Positions 10,797 to 40,483 of a stretch of 64,000 nucleotides of DNA are shown here, in pieces. This DNA comes from a phage. The notes under the pieces are model-generated. The model was not told where the DNA came from and ran no database searches. It was given only the letters and a program-made list of their open reading frames with translations. Both the position numbers and the translations under genes were made by a program. The stretch is from the sequence record PX104380.1. One strand, 5' to 3'. The stretch's first letter is position 1, and every line of letters starts with the position of its first letter.

Positions 10797-11267
10797 TTAA
10801 TCATGTGTCCACACCCCATCGGTATTTGACCAAAGTCGCTGATTATCTGATCCTCGCCACAGCTTTTTAGTCGGAAGATTTTTCTCATACTTCCCATCAA
10901 TAATAACATCAACATATTTAAGCATTTCTAGTTGTTTAATATCTTCAAACTTATATCCTGTCCACAACCAAATGCTTTTATTGGGATAAAGATTTTTAAT
11001 AGTTTGAACCACAGAGTGAATCACGTCTCTGTTATCAGGATAAAGAGGGTCACCTCCGGTTATAGTTAATCCTTCTATATAATCATTATTCAAACATTCA
11101 ATCAATTGTTCTAGTGTTTCACCAGTGAATGGAATACCATTTCTAGCATTCCATGTTGATTTATTATAACACCCTTCGCATTTATGCAAACAACCTGTAA
11201 CGAAAAGAACGACCCTGCATCCAGGGCCATTCACAAAGCAGCACGGGTATATTCTGTCATAATTCAT
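10797..11267 (-). CDS. nrdG: anaerobic ribonucleotide reductase activating protein NrdG (radical SAM)
   Basis: MNYDRIYPCCFVNGPGCR...CLHKCEGCYN cysteine cluster; start at internal Met gives ATGA overlap with upstream ORF. Confidence 0.85.
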   Translation of the reverse strand: MNYDRIYPCCFVNGPGCRVVLFVTGCLHKCEGCYNKSTWNARNGIPFTGETLEQLIECLNNDYIEGLTITGGDPLYPDNRDVIHSVVQTIKNLYPNKSIWLWTGYKFEDIKQLEMLKYVDVIIDGKYEKNLPTKKLWRGSDNQRLWSNTDGVWTHD

Positions 11268-12094
11268 AATAATATCCAATTTTTCCAAGCTTCATCAGTA
11301 GAATTACAGCGTTTTAGTATAAGATGTCTAGAAACTTTTATGGCATTTGAGCACTTTTTAATTGAATCATATTTAATACCGTCAACTGAAACGGTTTTGC
11401 TCGTTGGAGAAATTTTTCCATACATTGGATTTTTTGAACCAACTTGAAGTCCTTTTAAAGCTTTTGAAAGCTTTTGTCTAGATTCCAATGACATGGGAGA
11501 ATTCTTTTTACCTTCAATAATTCGCTTGCGATGAAGTTCGCGTTCTTCTTCGCTCAAAGAATTGTAATATTTTTTAACACCGTTTGATATAGATAATTTA
11601 TCTTTCTCAGACCGCTCTCCAACTAATTTACTTCTAACATCTTTTCGCTTCATAGCTATGCTTACAGCTTTATTTAAATTTGCTTGATGCTCTGGCGTAC
11701 GTTTATATTTCTTTAAAGCACGTGAAATAGCTATTTTAGTTTCTACTGTTTTCTTTTTACCTTTATTTGCTAAACTATTTTTGTGGCGATGTTCAAGTGT
11801 CTGTTCATAAGCAGTTCCACCTTTTCCACCGGGTTTAATATTATATGTATTTTCTTTTAGACAATACTCTTCGGTTACAAGTTCAGCTTCTTTATCATAC
11901 ATTTGTTTTTCATTATCAAAAACATGTAAAATTTCTTTATTAAAATTTTTTCTACCATATTTTAATAAAGCGGCACGAATCAATGTTCCTGATCCCATAT
12001 AACCGTCATTTATGTTATCGGTGCTATGCGCACCGATATATTCCTTTGAATTAATTATATTTGTTATTTTATAAATTATATAATACCTATGCAT
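11264..12094 (-). mobile_element. GIY-YIG homing endonuclease ORF (276 aa) inserted between nrdD and nrdG
   Basis: N-terminal YYIIYKITNIINSKEYIGAHS is a canonical GIY-YIG motif; basic C-terminal DNA-binding half. Confidence 0.7.
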
Positions 12095-13904
12095 GTTTTA
12101 CTCGTTTTACCATTTCTTTCATTTTACCTAAATTCCATGGAACAACGCTAGGAGTTCCAAGATATCCGCATGTTCTTCTTATGGTATTCATCTTTTTAGG
12201 ATCAGTTTCTCCACAAATAGAACAAACAAATCCGTTTTCAGTAGGAGTCATTTCATGGGTACTTCCACATGTAAAACATTTATCTACTGGCATATTAACA
12301 CCAAAATAATCTAAATGTTGTGCAGCATAATCCCATACGGCCTCAAGACCCTTTAAGTTATTTTTCATATCAGGAAGTTCAACATAAGAAATGTGGCCGC
12401 CTGTCGCAATGAAATGATATGGCGCTTCACGAGAAATCTTTTCAAACGGAGTAACATTTTCTTCTACTGAAACGTGGAAACTGTTAGTGTACCAGCCTTT
12501 ATCGGTAACATCTTTTACACTTCCATATTTTTCGGTATCAAGTTTACAGAAGCGATAACACAGGTTTTCAGCAGGAGTAGAATACAAGCTAAAAGCAAAT
12601 CCGGTTCTTTCTGTCCACTGCTTAAGACGAGCATTCATTTTAGTTAAAATTTCTTGTCCAATATCACGACCGACAAGAATATTCAATTCGTGAATACCAA
12701 TGTATCCTAAGGACACTGAACTTCTACCGTTTTTAAATAACTCAATTATATCATCATCAGGTTTAAGACGAACCCCGAATGCACCTTCTTGGTAAAGAAT
12801 AGGAGCAACAGTCGCTTTAACTCCTTTTAAGGAACTAATTCTACACATCAAAGCTTCAAAACACAGATCCATTCGTTCATTAAATAGCTCAACAAATTTC
12901 TGCTCATTGAATTGAGTTCCAATATAAGAATCTAATGCGATGCGAGGAAGATTCAATGTTACAACACCAAGATTATTACGTCCATCAAGAATTTCATTAC
13001 CGGTTGAATCTTTCCACACACTCAAGAAACTACGACAACCCATTGGAGAAACAGGAGTAGATGAGCCGGTGATAGCTTTATTGTTCTTAGCCGAAATGAT
13101 GTCAGGATACATTCTTTTGCTTGCGCACTCTAGAGCAAGCTGTTTAATATCATAGTTCGGGTCGTCTTTATAAAGATTAACACCTTCTTCAACGAACATA
13201 ACAAGTTTAGGGAAAATAGGAGTTATCCCATCACGACCAAGACCTTTAATACGATTTTTCAGAATTGCTTTCTGAATCATTCGTTCAGTCCAGTCAGTTC
13301 CCGTACCAAATGTAATTGTTACAAAAGGCGTTTGTCCGTTTGAACTAAAGAGAGTATTTACTTCATATTCATAAGCTTGGAATGCATCGTATACATCTTT
13401 TTCTGTTTTAGATTGAGCATAATTCAACGCATCAGCGATTTGCCATTTTTCTGCATCCTCAATATGTTTTGCATAGGTGCGTTTAACATAAGGAGAAAGT
13501 ACTTTATCTACATTCGCAAAAGTCGTTCCGCCGTATTGATGGGAAGCAACCTGTGCAGTAATTTGTGCCATAATTGCAGTAGCAACACCGATTGATTTAG
13601 GAGTTTCAATCTGTGCATTACCAAGCTTAAATCCGTTCTCAAGCATTCCTTTTAAATCTACTAAACAACAATTAGTAAATGGAAGAGCAGGGGAATAATC
13701 AATATCATGGAAATGAATAATTCCGCTTTCATGCGCTTTCATAATAAAAGACGGGACCATATTTTTGGCAATGTGTTTAGACACAATACCAGCCATAAGG
13801 TCCCGTTGAGTTGGAAAAACACGAGAATCTTTATTAGCATTCTCGTTTAAAAGGTCTTTATTAGTTTTATGAATCAATCCTTCAATTTCTTTTTCAATTG
13901 TCAT
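12087..13904 (-). CDS. nrdD: anaerobic (class III) ribonucleoside-triphosphate reductase NrdD, 605 aa, uninterrupted
   Basis: Length and sequence recognised as T4 NrdD; C-terminal CxxC zinc site and glycyl-radical region; no intron interrupts the ORF. Confidence 0.9.
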   Translation of the reverse strand: MTIEKEIEGLIHKTNKDLLNENANKDSRVFPTQRDLMAGIVSKHIAKNMVPSFIMKAHESGIIHFHDIDYSPALPFTNCCLVDLKGMLENGFKLGNAQIETPKSIGVATAIMAQITAQVASHQYGGTTFANVDKVLSPYVKRTYAKHIEDAEKWQIADALNYAQSKTEKDVYDAFQAYEYEVNTLFSSNGQTPFVTITFGTGTDWTERMIQKAILKNRIKGLGRDGITPIFPKLVMFVEEGVNLYKDDPNYDIKQLALECASKRMYPDIISAKNNKAITGSSTPVSPMGCRSFLSVWKDSTGNEILDGRNNLGVVTLNLPRIALDSYIGTQFNEQKFVELFNERMDLCFEALMCRISSLKGVKATVAPILYQEGAFGVRLKPDDDIIELFKNGRSSVSLGYIGIHELNILVGRDIGQEILTKMNARLKQWTERTGFAFSLYSTPAENLCYRFCKLDTEKYGSVKDVTDKGWYTNSFHVSVEENVTPFEKISREAPYHFIATGGHISYVELPDMKNNLKGLEAVWDYAAQHLDYFGVNMPVDKCFTCGSTHEMTPTENGFVCSICGETDPKKMNTIRRTCGYLGTPSVVPWNLGKMKEMVKRVKHA

Positions 13905-14374
13905 TTTAAACTCTTTCTAAGCTGCTTCTTGAATGAAGCTATTAATTGTGTTTTGGTGTCAGATTCATTATATTCAAATCCTCTTTGAAGCATCTCGGCA
14001 ATCATTTCCTCTTTTCCTAAACGAGAAAATTCCTTTGATTTATCTCCAACAAAGTTAGGGTGAATATTATTTTGGGTGTAATCGGATTTTAAATAAGTAA
14101 GTAAATTTTCTAACCATTCAAGATAATCAACACCTTGCCCCTTTAAGCCAGAACGATTAAATTTATGTTTCATTTGACCTTCCGCGGCATTGCAGAGATT
14201 ACAAAGCAATCCACGTACCTTTCCTGCTTTTGGTCCATTTAATTCATGGTCATGGTCAAGGTGATTAGCTTGAACATCAGGATTTAATTCTCGTTGGCAA
14301 ATTAAGCATTTACCATTTTGTGCATCATAAAATTTCTGTTTTTCTTCTTTATATAATTTGCCAGTCAATAACAT
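13901..14374 (-). CDS. 49: endonuclease VII (Holliday junction resolvase) gp49, 157 aa
   Basis: CLICQ...CNLCN zinc motif and length match T4 gp49. Confidence 0.9.
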   Translation of the reverse strand: MLLTGKLYKEEKQKFYDAQNGKCLICQRELNPDVQANHLDHDHELNGPKAGKVRGLLCNLCNAAEGQMKHKFNRSGLKGQGVDYLEWLENLLTYLKSDYTQNNIHPNFVGDKSKEFSRLGKEEMIAEMLQRGFEYNESDTKTQLIASFKKQLRKSLK

Positions 14375-31571: not shown

Positions 31572-31850
31572 TTATTCTTTAAATCTAATCAATTTATTCA
31601 TAGACTTTGAAACTTCTGCACGAACCTCATGTAAGTTTTTAAGCTGTTCAAGACGCTGCGTATAGTAAGCAATTTCATCTTCTTCGAGACAGTCCTGTGA
31701 ATCTTCTTTAAGATAACGTGCATAGTCCTGAAAAGCTTTACGGACTACTTCCTGGAAGTCATCAAGACTTTGAATTTTCTTAGGAGCGGCAGATACACGA
31801 CGAGGTGCAGTATAATACTCATAACCAAACCCTGCACTTAATTGAGCCAT
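31572..31850 (-). CDS. hypothetical protein (92 aa from TAATG-coupled start)
   Basis: Minus-strand ORF. Confidence 0.45.
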
Positions 31851-32116
31851 TAGTATTTTTCCTCTGGTTGGAACACTGCACGACAAGCCCACATACTGGC
31901 TTCTTTGAGTTTCGTTTTAGCAATAGTTAACTGATCGAGGCTTTCAGCATAATTCTTCGCGAGTTCATCATCTTCACAGCTATCAAATGCTTCCCAAAAT
32001 TCATCGTATAAAGCATCAAAGATAAGTCCTAAACGAACTTCAGCGTCTTTGATAGCATTCACTTTACTGATTTTCTCTTCGGTATGCGGCTTATAACCCT
32101 TAATATCTTCAATCAT
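31850..32116 (-). CDS. small protein in the position of T4 vs.4 (possible Acb2-type anti-CBASS nucleotide sponge), 88 aa
   Basis: Assigned by gene order and size only; AAGGAAG SD before ATG at 32116. Confidence 0.3.
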
Positions 32117-32330
32117 ATTTGACTTCCTTACCAGTACATAAATCATATTCAACTAAACGAATAGGTTCATGAATGCCATATCCCTGAACAGAAATTTCTG
32201 TCGTGGGATAAATTCCATCAATATCACCCATATTCCAGGCTTCATTAAATTGCTGTTCGCCTGAATTACTAAACCACTCGGCGAAAGCATTTAGCACATC
32301 TTCAGAACCTTCAATAATTATCTTTGCCAT
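32109..32330 (-). CDS. hypothetical acidic protein (73 aa)
   Basis: Minus-strand ORF. Confidence 0.45.
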   Translation of the reverse strand: MAKIIIEGSEDVLNAFAEWFSNSGEQQFNEAWNMGDIDGIYPTTEISVQGYGIHEPIRLVEYDLCTGKEVKYD

Positions 32331-32692
32331 TACAAACTCTCGGTGAAGGTACGAGCGATAACGTCGCGCTGCTGTTCCGGAGTCAGAGAGTTAAAGCGAA
32401 CTGCATAACCGGATACACGGATGGTCAGCTGCGGATATTTTTCCGGATGCTTAACTGCATCTTCCAGAGTTTCACGACGCAGAACGTTAACGTTCAGGTG
32501 TTGACCACCTTCAATTTTAACTGTAGGTTGTGTTTCAATTTCAATTTCACGGGCATGCAAACCGTAGAAAATTTCCGGGTCTACAAAAGAGTCCTCTTTA
32601 AAGGTTTTAGAGACAATAATTCGTGCTTGAATACCATCTTCAAAATAAATAGTACCTTTATGTGTGCCTTCAAGAATTTGATATGCTTTCAT
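32330..32692 (-). CDS. autonomous glycyl-radical cofactor-like protein (GrcA/YfiD-like), 120 aa
   Basis: C-terminal [25 protein letters not shown] is the glycyl-radical signature. Confidence 0.75.
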
Positions 32693-32699
32693 ATAAACC

Positions 32700-33080
32700 T
32701 CAATTAGAAAATAAATTTATCCAAGATTGTTCTTTAATTAAAAACGGCTCAGAATCATATGCCATTAAACTTTGCGTAATTAATCCTTTAAAAGGTCCAT
32801 CAATAAATTCCATGGTAAAATATGGAATTTTATTCATTAGCCGTGCATTAGGAGCAGTACATAAAACTCTGCATCCTTTGAATACACCTTTTTGTAATTT
32901 GTATTGCTTGGGATAAAATTCGCTCAAAATGTTATTATTTGCTAAAATTTCAAAATGATTCACCAATTTATTTTTAATAGTTTTTGGCGAAAAATAAAGA
33001 TATTCGAAAAGTTGCGTATCTGTCATCATTGCATTCCAATTACGAAAAACTGCGGACGAGTAATACCACCAATACAGCAT
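32700..33080 (-). CDS. hypothetical protein (start uncertain)
   Basis: Minus-strand ORF. Confidence 0.4.
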
Positions 33081-33679
33081 TTACTATTGCAGCAATATTG
33101 CACAGTTTCAATATGAATATCGTAAATTTTATCCATATCAGGAGATTTAACAGGCTCATCGATTATATACAAAATTCGAGAAAGCGATAAACCTCTGAAC
33201 TTGCTACCTCTATTACCAACAAAACTACGGACAGAATCAGTAAATAAACGAAAACGTATATCATCATTAGAATAACGCGAAAATTCCTTTTTAATGTTAT
33301 TTGCAGAAATTTCAGCGTAAGCTGAAGTATTAGAAAGAACAATAACTGTTCCGCCATCATACAGCCAATTAGCAGCAAAGTTAGTCACAGCAATTGATTT
33401 ACCGGATTGACGTCCACCATCTATACGAAGTGTGCAGTACTGTTTAAGTAATTCTTCAAATGGCGGGATATATTCGTTTTTACAAATTTCTTCTACTCTA
33501 GCATCAGAATGGTGTGTAAAAGCATTCATCAGGGATAGATACGGGCCAGTTAAAAATGTTCTCATATTATTTCTCTTAAGGTTTTTGGGCCATTCCATGG
33601 CACATGAGTTGTCCATTCCTGCATTACCCATTACCGCACTTGGGCTCGACCTTATTACAGGTTGGCGGGAATCCCTCAT
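33026..33679 (-). CDS. small P-loop NTPase-like protein (start uncertain)
   Basis: GGRQSGKS Walker A-like and ILYIIDEP Walker B-like motifs. Confidence 0.45.
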   Translation of the reverse strand: MRDSRQPVIRSSPSAVMGNAGMDNSCAMEWPKNLKRNNMRTFLTGPYLSLMNAFTHHSDARVEEICKNEYIPPFEELLKQYCTLRIDGGRQSGKSIAVTNFAANWLYDGGTVIVLSNTSAYAEISANNIKKEFSRYSNDDIRFRLFTDSVRSFVGNRGSKFRGLSLSRILYIIDEPVKSPDMDKIYDIHIETVQYCCNSKCCIGGITRPQFFVIGMQ

Positions 33680-33708
33680 AGAATCATGAGGTCCAGGTTG
33701 TTCCCATA

Positions 33709-34182
33709 TTATTTGAACGATTTAACGTACTGAATAGAACCTTTACTATTTACAAAGGCAATTTTACCATTTTTATTATACATGGTAGCAGTACGTTGAT
33801 AACCATAAGTTTGTTTACCAGATTGATAACCAACTAATGCGAAATTATCTTCGCCCATTTTATTCTGTTTAGCGCGAATGCGTTCATGACCATGTGCCAT
33901 AAGAACCTTAGCATCACCAGTTACAATGGATCGACGAGTTTTTTCATCTTCAACTGTATTAACAAAGTCGTCAAATGAATCAAATTTAGCATGAGATTTA
34001 TTATACAGTTTTCCATCTACTGCATAATTATATCCCTGTACATCCATCTCAACTTCTGTACCATCATCCAATACAGCAGTAATTTTCTGTCCTTTTTTAA
34101 ATTTCAAAAGATCAGTAAAAGATTCAGCAATAATTTGAGAATTAATAGCTGCTTCAGTGATAAATTCTTGATATGTTTTCAT
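33709..34182 (-). CDS. capsid internal protein with MKTYQEF capsid-targeting sequence (157 aa)
   Basis: N-terminus MKTYQEFITEA matches the internal-protein capsid-targeting sequence; sits next to e as ipIII does in T4. Confidence 0.65.
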   Translation of the reverse strand: MKTYQEFITEAAINSQIIAESFTDLLKFKKGQKITAVLDDGTEVEMDVQGYNYAVDGKLYNKSHAKFDSFDDFVNTVEDEKTRRSIVTGDAKVLMAHGHERIRAKQNKMGEDNFALVGYQSGKQTYGYQRTATMYNKNGKIAFVNSKGSIQYVKSFK

Positions 34183-34237
34183 GTGTTTCCTTTAAATATT
34201 TTAATTAGTAATTTGTCTCTTCAAGCAACTGTGAATA

Positions 34238-34266
34238 TACTATCACAATTCTAGGAGAAAGTAAAC
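34238..34266 (-). promoter_or_regulatory. T4 early-type promoter upstream of internal-protein gene
   Basis: Minus-strand GTTTACTTTCTCCTAGAATTGTGATAGTAT. Confidence 0.5.
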
Positions 34267-34270
34267 AACT

Positions 34271-39465: not shown

Positions 39466-39541
39466 TGGTCGAGGCAGTAGGGATCGAACCTACGACCTAG
39501 GACTTAGAAGGTCCTTGCTCTTCCTTCTGAGCTATGCCCCG
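39466..39541 (-). tRNA. tRNA-Arg (anticodon UCU)
   Basis: Manual fold: acceptor CGGGGCA/TGCCTCG, anticodon loop CTTCTAA, T-arm GGTTCGATCC, encoded CCA. Confidence 0.85.
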
Positions 39542-39545
39542 TAAT

Positions 39546-39621
39546 TGGGGTGACCGATGGGAGTCGAACCCATGACTACGAGAATCACAATCTCGAGTTC
39601 TACCAACTGAACTACGGCCAC
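39546..39621 (-). tRNA. tRNA-His (anticodon GUG)
   Basis: Manual fold: acceptor GTGGCCG/CGGTCAC, discriminator C73, anticodon loop TTGTGAT. Confidence 0.8.
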
Positions 39622-39735
39622 ATTAATACCTACTCCAACAATCAAGATGTCTTCACACGAAATTAAGAGAAGAGTGATCAGTTCAACCCCTATAATCGCG
39701 TCAAGTAGATATTAATGTGACAGTTGTCACAAATT

Positions 39736-39810
39736 TGGCGGACGTGATAGGATTCGAACCTATAACCAATCGCTTAACAGGCGATCGCTCTGCCATTGAG
39801 CTACACATCC
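39736..39810 (-). tRNA. tRNA-Asn (anticodon GUU)
   Basis: Manual fold: acceptor GGATGTG/CACGTCC, anticodon stem ATCGC/GCGAT, loop CTGTTAA. Confidence 0.8.
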
Positions 39811-39814
39811 AAAT

Positions 39815-39901
39815 TGGTGGGGAGTGGTGGAGTCGAACCACCCGAGTCGCAATGACAATGAATTTACAGTCCACACCGCTACCTCTACGGGATAACTCCC
39901 C
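39815..39901 (-). tRNA. tRNA-Tyr (anticodon GUA), long variable arm
   Basis: Manual fold: acceptor GGGGAGT/ACTCCCC, anticodon loop CTGTAAA, 87 nt. Confidence 0.7.
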
Positions 39902-39910
39902 AAATTAATT

Positions 39911-39985
39911 TGGTGGCCCTGGGTGGAATTGAACCACCATCTGGCGATTATGAGTCGCTTGCTTGAACCTTCCAGCTACAGGGCC
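39911..39985 (-). tRNA. tRNA with CAU anticodon (Ile-lysidine type as in T4, or Met)
   Basis: Manual fold: acceptor GGCCCTG/CAGGGCC, anticodon loop CTCATAA. Confidence 0.75.
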
Positions 39986-39986
39986 T

Positions 39987-40062
39987 TGGTGCTGATTAAC
40001 GGAATCGAACCGCCGACCTTCTCATTACAAGTGAGTTGCTCTACCTACTGAGCTAAATCAGC
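39987..40062 (-). tRNA. tRNA-Thr (anticodon UGU)
   Basis: Manual fold: acceptor GCTGATT/AATCAGC, anticodon loop CTTGTAA. Confidence 0.8.
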
Positions 40063-40067
40063 AAAAC

Positions 40068-40157
40068 TGGCGGAGGTGATAGGATTCGAACCTATGAATC
40101 GCCGGAGCGACTGCCGGTTTTCAAGACCGGTGCATTCAACCACTCTGCCACACCTCC
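40068..40157 (-). tRNA. tRNA-Ser (anticodon UGA), long variable arm
   Basis: Manual fold: acceptor GGAGGTG/CACCTCC, anticodon stem CCGGT/ACCGG, loop CTTGAAA, 90 nt. Confidence 0.8.
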
Positions 40158-40159
40158 AG

Positions 40160-40233
40160 TCTCCATACAAGGATTTGAACCTTGGACCTCCTGATCCCAA
40201 ATCAGGCGCTCTACCAAACTGAGCTACACGGAG
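40160..40233 (-). tRNA. tRNA-Pro (anticodon UGG), 3' CCA not encoded
   Basis: Manual fold: acceptor CTCCGTG/TATGGAG, anticodon stem CCTGA/TCAGG, loop TTTGGGA. Confidence 0.8.
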
Positions 40234-40243
40234 TAAATTAAAT

Positions 40244-40317
<74 letters not shown>

Positions 40318-40322
40318 AAATT

Positions 40323-40409
40323 TGGTGCGAGAAGTGGGACTCGAACCCACAAGGAAATCATTCCGCAGCATTTTAAGTGCTGTGCCTTTACCAATTTGAC
40401 CATTCTCGC
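40323..40409 (-). tRNA. tRNA-Leu (anticodon UAA), long variable arm
   Basis: Manual fold: acceptor GCGAGAA/TTCTCGC, anticodon stem CAGCA/TGCTG, loop CTTAAAA. Confidence 0.85.
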
Positions 40410-40410
40410 G

Positions 40411-40483
40411 CTGGGAATAAAGGACTCGAACCTTTGCATCCTGGAATCAAAATCCAGTGCCTTACCAACTTGGCTAATTCCCA
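40411..40483 (-). tRNA. tRNA-Gln (anticodon UUG), 3' CCA not encoded
   Basis: Manual fold: acceptor TGGGAAT/ATTCCCA (U1-A72), anticodon stem CTGGA/TCCAG, loop TTTTGAT. Confidence 0.85.

Follow-up and report, generated by a model that had tools for sequence, protein, structure and literature searches.

The open reading frame at positions 32330..32692 (minus strand) of the window, by which we mean the whole 64,000-nt stretch of phage DNA analysed here (PX104380.1), is almost certainly the T4-family gene vs.6 (Y06I, GRCA_BPT4), encoding a phage version of the GrcA/YfiD spare part for cleaved pyruvate formate-lyase (PflB). Comparison with phage and bacterial sequences indicates that this gene is a mosaic, which arose when host DNA replaced a patch of an old phage gene by gene conversion. 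As a gene call vs.6 adds nothing; publications from 2001 onwards cover the protein, its name and its biochemical activity, and Swiss-Prot and RefSeq include them. The original prediction had taken the gene for a discovery, but the protein is already present as Swiss-Prot P13316 and is named GrcA in many phage records. The host-derived tract is the sole element that might repay a short follow-up.

The vs.6 gene and its family

The features of the vs.6 region to which we refer below are the following.

32330..32692, minus strand: vs.6 coding sequence, 120 amino acids plus stop, ATG to TAA, intact (ORF list; orthologue of T4 Y06I / GRCA_BPT4)
32408..32410, minus strand: GGT, predicted radical-site codon, Gly95 in RVSG95Y (direct reading of the DNA)
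32698..32701, minus strand: GAGG, Shine-Dalgarno-like motif, followed by TTTAT (5 bases) and then the ATG (direct reading, reverse complement of ...catataaacctcaatt...)
32700..33080, minus strand: vs.7 open reading frame (ORF list)

The GAGG motif upstream of vs.6 overlaps the TGA stop codon of vs.7 (32700..32702). At the other end of the gene, the TAA stop codon of vs.6 overlaps the ATG of vs.5 (TAATG), which starts on the last base of that stop codon. A scan of region 31800..33800 for promoters and terminators remained at shuffle expectation (7 versus 7.3 and 2 versus 1.0).

The window is a segment of a Tequatrovirus (T4-like) genome. When T4 proteins were used in a tblastn search of the window, regB, vs.3, vs.4, vs.5, vs.6, vs.7, vs.8 and e were found in T4 order, and the vs.6 protein proved identical to T4 Vs.6 (Swiss-Prot P13316, GRCA_BPT4; NP_049730.1) at 118 of its 120 residues (98.3%). 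The T4 genome record NC_000866 annotates vs.6, located between vs.7 and vs.5, as "autonomous glycyl radical cofactor GrcA". A total of 805 phage records match the 1.4 kb around vs.6, among them Escherichia phage vB_EcoM_G4507 with 99.9% identity. With the vs.6 ORF alone 1,507 phage records match, 927 of them covering at least 80% of the ORF, and many matching records already carry the same annotation as T4. The exact protein of this phage is present on 122 public contigs, where it is named GrcA.

Some differences from T4 were observed nearby. The vs.5 gene (32109..32330, minus strand) encodes 73 amino acids here versus 58 in T4, and tblastn matched it in two segments, separated by an insertion that follows residue 17. 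T4 has denV, ipII and ipIII between vs.8 and the lysozyme gene e; the corresponding part of the window (33680..34270) contains a single 157-aa ORF (33709..34182), whose product has a start resembling that of T4 internal proteins (MKTYQEFITEA) and shows weak similarity to IPII; a denV homologue was not found at this locus. Residues 56-101 of T4 DenV gave a weak tblastn match at 13916..14062 (43% over 49 amino acids, E=1.5e-4), which may be spurious and falls inside the endonuclease VII gene (13901..14374, minus strand).

Profile and structure searches place the product of vs.6 in the GrcA/YfiD family, as a small stand-alone protein whose C-terminal half is a glycyl-radical domain of the PFL type. 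Pfam Gly_radical matched residues 60-101 (E=2.2e-18), the NCBIfam GrcA model TIGR04365 (InterPro IPR011140) matched with E=1.4e-45, and E. coli GrcA (PDB 6OWR) with E=4.6e-42, residues 22-120 aligning on GrcA 28-127. Given these matches and the intact reading frame, we rejected a chance ORF or a mis-framed reading. Residues 61-120 are identical to GrcA 68-127 (60/60), and residues 58-120 share 49 of 63 positions (78%) with PflB 697-759. The N-terminal half is about 37% identical to its GrcA counterpart (residues 22-59 versus GrcA 28-66; manual count on the HMMER alignment). Glycine 95 pairs with G102 of GrcA and G734 of PflB (residue numbering as in PMC12338860), and the alignment is free of gaps across RVSGY.

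With 154.6 bits the protein falls below the equivalog cutoff of TIGR04365 (170 bits) because its N-terminal 60 residues are diverged. Phage profile PHROG 1209, however, matched over the full length (residues 1-120 on profile positions 1-121, E=5.4e-63), and residues 1-59 alone were sufficient for a match (E=1.1e-15). The whole protein, beyond the radical domain, therefore belongs to a conserved phage family, and the most fitting description of vs.6 is that of a GrcA-type phage subfamily (PHROG 1209), not that of a strict bacterial equivalog. The phage-encoded GrcA/YfiD-like cofactor of the original prediction is thus borne out by Pfam, TIGR04365, 6OWR and the identity to T4 vs.6; the C-terminal sequence quoted there corresponds exactly to residues 92-116, and alignment to GrcA, which it had proposed as a check, confirmed the presence of the RVSGY glycine (G95 = GrcA G102).

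A host-derived tract in the radical domain

Comparison of vs.6 with E. coli grcA divides the gene into three parts.

32515..32692, minus strand: phage-type 5' half, codons 1-59 plus the first two bases of codon 60; AT-rich, diverged homologue of the N-terminal half of GrcA
32346..32514, minus strand: host-derived tract, ORF nt 179-347, glycyl-radical domain; exact 169-nt match to E. coli grcA nt 200-368
32330..32345, minus strand: last 16 nt, again phage-type; 5 synonymous differences from E. coli

In a DNA alignment with T4 vs.6 and E. coli grcA, the first 178 aligned bases of the window gene are 45.5% identical to E. coli and the last 185 are 97.3% identical (Fisher p ~1e-31). The longest exact run shared with E. 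coli grcA is 169 nt in vs.6 of the window and 138 nt in T4, and the differences in the last 16 nt are located at ORF nt 348, 351, 354, 357 and 358. Base composition follows the same division: GC is 0.34 and GC3 0.20 in the 5' half, GC3 is 0.46 in the 3' half, and the tract has a GC of 0.50 while that of the whole window is 34.8%. The tract starts at GrcA codon 67/68, which is essentially where the structured domain (61-127) begins; the NMR structure shows a disordered N-terminal half for GrcA.

ORF nt 179-363 were found with 95-99% identity in all of the 5,426 complete E. coli genomes (5,426/5,426; best 97.3%). Among 87 bacterial grcA genes that of E. coli was the closest (96.8-97.8%), followed by the next genus at about 89-90%. 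When the whole 64 kb was compared with all E. coli genomes by megablast, a chromosome match was obtained only at this vs.6 patch. The sole other match listed was the tRNA-Tyr region (~39812..39904), which is 88% identical to an E. coli plasmid record (H120). This region forms part of a set of 11 tRNA genes at 39466..40483 (minus strand; Arg, His, Asn, Tyr, Met, Thr, Ser, Pro, Gly, Leu, Gln); T4 has 8 tRNA genes.

Some database records deserve a comment here. "Pseudomonas phage vB_PSGBLB0006" is a T4-like genome whose vs.6 region is 96.9% identical to that of this E. coli phage, and PLSDB files as plasmids a 5.37-Mb K. pneumoniae and a 568-kb K. aerogenes replicon, both of which contain grcA. 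Labelling problems are probable for records PV654520.1, CP125156.1 and LR134122.1.

Several explanations for the E. coli identity were rejected. In Pseudotevenvirus UPEC03 the C-terminal 60 residues are the same, but 29 of its 60 codons for them differ from those of E. coli versus 5 of 60 in the window (p=1.5e-6); together with leB, which also encodes these residues, the range is 29-30 synonymous differences. Protein constraint is therefore not the explanation for the DNA identity. Capture of a whole host gene was discarded since DNA flanking the host gene (ung, eamB) is absent around the tract and identity breaks off within the coding sequence at either end; hence, the tract represents a patch replacement in a diverged homologue that the phage already had. 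The opposite direction, from phage to E. coli, was likewise discarded, since the GC of the tract is host-like and E. coli grcA lies between ung and eamB; the presence of grcA orthologues in 80 enterobacterial and Pasteurellaceae genomes, and of grcA in all 5,426 E. coli genomes, also argues against this direction. We propose that the 3' tract was recently overwritten by host grcA via homologous patch recombination, as a consequence of which the radical domain is, residue for residue, that of E. coli GrcA. The direction and the number of recombination events were derived from about a dozen sequences rather than from a population analysis.

Other phages provided indications on the age and number of such events. 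Compared with Mosigvirus JS09, this phage shows about 69% identity in 400 nt of flanking DNA and about 90% in the 5' half of vs.6, versus 98.8% in the host tract. The tract is therefore either younger than the split of the genera, or has been exchanged or re-converted since. Its 3' end is located at nt 347 in the window, nt 356 in T4 and nt 353 in JS09, and the Mosigvirus vs.6 alleles contain private synonymous changes. A comparable pattern was observed for Klebsiella phage vB_KpnM-JEC (Jiaodavirus), whose vs.6 has a GC3 of 0.22 in the 5' half and 0.57 in the 3' half. Over 173 nt the latter reaches 94.2% identity with K. pneumoniae grcA versus about 87% with E. coli, and it differs synonymously from K. 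pneumoniae at 12 of 59 codons versus 35 of 60 in another Klebsiella phage (p=3e-5). In addition, JEC vs.6 has the Klebsiella-type residues ETLLDAVEH.

These comparisons, which cover about a dozen sequences, are suggestive of independent, host-matched conversions in E. coli and Klebsiella phages, and the radical domain of such phages may follow the genus of the host. More generally, we consider it a tentative possibility, somewhat short of probable, that the radical domain of vs.6 has been overwritten repeatedly by grcA of the current host, independently in Tequatrovirus/Mosigvirus and in Jiaodavirus, while the N-terminal half and the last ~16 nt, where vs.5 starts, were kept. A full-text search of the literature found no description of a vs.6 host-conversion mosaic, the key T4 genome papers being outside the reach of that search. 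If true, this would be a clean natural case of ongoing gene conversion from host to virulent phage, by which an auxiliary protein is kept matched to the PFL and PFL-AE of the host. If confirmed at population scale, it would provide a tidy model for the exchange of host sequences by strictly lytic phages with modified DNA. The mosaic could also help to show which half of a spare part must match the host.

Probable repair of host pyruvate formate-lyase and alternative readings

The function of the T4 orthologue has been published. According to the account given in PMC8683613, which cites Wagner et al. 2001 (pmid 11444864), YfiD and T4 Y06I, both of ~14 kDa, restore PFL cleaved by O2, for which PFL-AE has to place a radical on YfiD or Y06I and a complex has to be formed with the cleaved enzyme. 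YfiD and Y06I are the only validated spare parts (PMC8683613). Residues 61-127 of YfiD take the fold of PFL 693-759, and residues 1-60 are disordered, yet required for binding of cleaved PFL and for efficient activation (PMC8683613 and its predecessor). The radical path runs from G102 of GrcA to C419 of PflB (PMC12338860). Host PFL, one of two targets named in the original prediction, is thus the target reported for the T4 protein in that account, and the identity at 118 of 120 residues suggests that the same function, rescue of cleaved host PFL, applies to the allele in the window. In this mechanism, which is known for E. coli YfiD, oxygen cleaves active host PflB at its radical glycine G734; Vs.6 would bind the cleaved enzyme with its C-terminal domain standing in for the lost PflB C-terminus, and the host activase PflA (PFL-AE) would put the radical on G95 of Vs.6. 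The 5' half of vs.6 encodes the counterpart of the N-terminal part through which YfiD binds. A literature search found no test of an in vivo benefit of vs.6 to the phage.

Since infection by T4-type phages turns off the expression of host genes and leads to breakdown of the host DNA, an infected cell would be unable to induce its own grcA. The reason for carrying vs.6 is probably to keep PFL active despite this shut-off: the phage copy would sustain fermentative energy and acetyl-CoA supply during microaerobic infection, for instance in the gut. In RB55, a T4-type laboratory phage (KM607002.1), vs.6 contains a 13-nt deletion (CGGTTATGCAGTT) by which the radical Gly-Tyr codons are lost and the frame is shifted, and in phage KMB39 the gene is split. 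It follows that laboratory culture does not require vs.6, in keeping with a function of importance only in oxygen-limited infection. The vs.6 region of RB55 is devoid of an annotated CDS, and the deletion could be a real inactivation or a sequencing error.

The other target named in the original prediction was the anaerobic ribonucleotide reductase of the phage, whose gene and activase gene were indeed found in the window.

12087..13904, minus strand: nrdD, anaerobic class III ribonucleotide reductase (Pfam NRDD 6.6e-172, Gly_radical 8.1e-25)
10797..11288, minus strand: nrdG, radical-SAM activase of NrdD (Pfam Fer4_12 8.3e-49, Radical_SAM 1.3e-07)

NrdD is a glycyl radical enzyme prone to the same oxygen cleavage, and with both NrdD and NrdG encoded in the same genome Vs.6 might be a spare part for oxygen-cleaved phage NrdD that is activated by NrdG and restores dNTP synthesis; PMC8683613 does speculate on spare parts for other glycyl radical enzymes. 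The sequences make this extremely unlikely. The C-terminus of NrdD reads ...CFTCGS...CSICG...RRTCGYLG..., with the glycine loop following a Cys-rich segment. Vs.6 is without significant similarity to this arrangement (RxCGY loop plus preceding Cys-rich segment), which is that of class III NrdD C-termini. The best BLASTP match of Vs.6 to the NrdD of the window had E=2.5 and lay away from the radical site, and a MAFFT alignment of Vs.6 with the NrdD C-terminus, a comparison that the original prediction had also proposed, left the glycine of RRTCGY unpaired with that of RVSGY. A spare part has to take the place of the C-terminal module that its target has lost, and the module of Vs.6, which equals that of host GrcA and shares 78% of its residues with the PflB C-terminus, is a copy of the PflB/GrcA module and not of that of NrdD. 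Moreover, vs.6 is separated from nrdD and nrdG by ~18-21 kb and many genes, and its recurrent match to host grcA sequences suits a host partner, not a phage partner. With the sequence arguing against servicing of NrdD, an NrdD-rescue experiment would be a poor bet.

Two further readings concern vs.6 itself. It could be a passenger, grcA DNA that was recently acquired from the host by accident and serves no purpose specific to the phage, as the original prediction had allowed; the 169-nt identity to E. coli grcA, the host-like GC of the tract, and the inactivated and split genes of RB55 and KMB39 point in that direction. A recent host origin does apply to the 3' half, but the gene is old and syntenic, lying directly upstream of vs.5 in Mosigvirus and beside vs.8 in Krischvirus, and its 5' half is phage-specific and conserved, as its match to PHROG 1209 on its own indicates. 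Intact homologues exist in six T4-like genera, Aeromonas phage 31 and T5-like phages, most of them without a host-like tract, and the number of phage records that cover at least 80% of the ORF (927) is likewise hard to reconcile with a passenger. We therefore regard this reading as very unlikely; the host-derived 3' tract does not negate a phage role for vs.6. Alternatively, Vs.6 could act as a decoy or modulator that competes with host GrcA or PflB for PFL-AE or blocks cleaved PflB, redirecting host fermentation or formate production. Its N-terminal half, which in YfiD affects binding and activation efficiency, is only ~37% identical to that of the host, and binding could differ. However, the catalytic domain, including G95, is fully conserved, and T4 Y06I is reported to restore PFL like YfiD (PMC8683613, as an account of Wagner 2001), which leaves a decoy exceedingly improbable. 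Repair of cleaved host PFL is thus the reading we retain for vs.6.

The nrdD gene is an uninterrupted ORF of 605 amino acids. Between nrdD and nrdG a 276-aa ORF (11264..12094, minus strand) has matches to NUMOD3, the I-TevI DNA-binding domain and, weakly, GIY-YIG (SegE-like), and it looks like a free-standing homing-endonuclease gene.

Comparison with known systems

The closest relative, T4 Vs.6, has the same length (120 amino acids), the same neighbours, with vs.7 upstream and vs.5 downstream with the stop/start overlap, and the same mosaic with E. coli grcA. It differs by having P at residue 54 and H at residue 73, where the protein of the window has T54 and R73; R73 is the E. coli residue, kept in the window allele. 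In addition, the 3' end of the host-identical tract is at nt 356 in T4 and not, as here, at nt 347.

Homologues are present in Mosigvirus, Jiaodavirus, Karamvirus, Pseudotevenvirus, Krischvirus, Biquartavirus, Aeromonas phage 31, the T5-like Epseptimavirus and a Vibrio phage. The intact proteins of the six T4-like genera have 120-123 amino acids, with 139 for that of Krischvirus Phi1. The homologues of other genera share the architecture and the conserved phage-type N-terminus (MKAYQILEG...) of Vs.6, and the gene order is vs.8-vs.7-vs.6-vs.5 in Mosigvirus. Most of them are, however, without host-identical DNA, with an identity to E. coli of 72-83% over the 3'-terminal 186 nt; the E. coli tract is found in Mosigvirus vs.6 too (97%), whereas that of Jiaodavirus is Klebsiella-like instead.

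E. coli GrcA/YfiD (P68066, 6OWR) is, like Vs.6, a stand-alone protein; homology extends over nearly the full length, and the C-terminal 60 residues and 169 nt of DNA are identical. It is 7 residues longer than the phage protein, the N-terminal halves are ~37% identical, and its gene lies in the host locus ung-grcA-eamB, whereas vs.6 is located in the genome of a lytic phage and its N-terminal half is encoded by AT-rich, phage-type DNA. Finally, the C-terminal domain of PflB (PDB 2PFL, 1H16; residues 693-759) has the same module of strand, Gly loop and helix, but there the radical domain is part of a 759-aa enzyme, while in Vs.6 it belongs to an autonomous protein.
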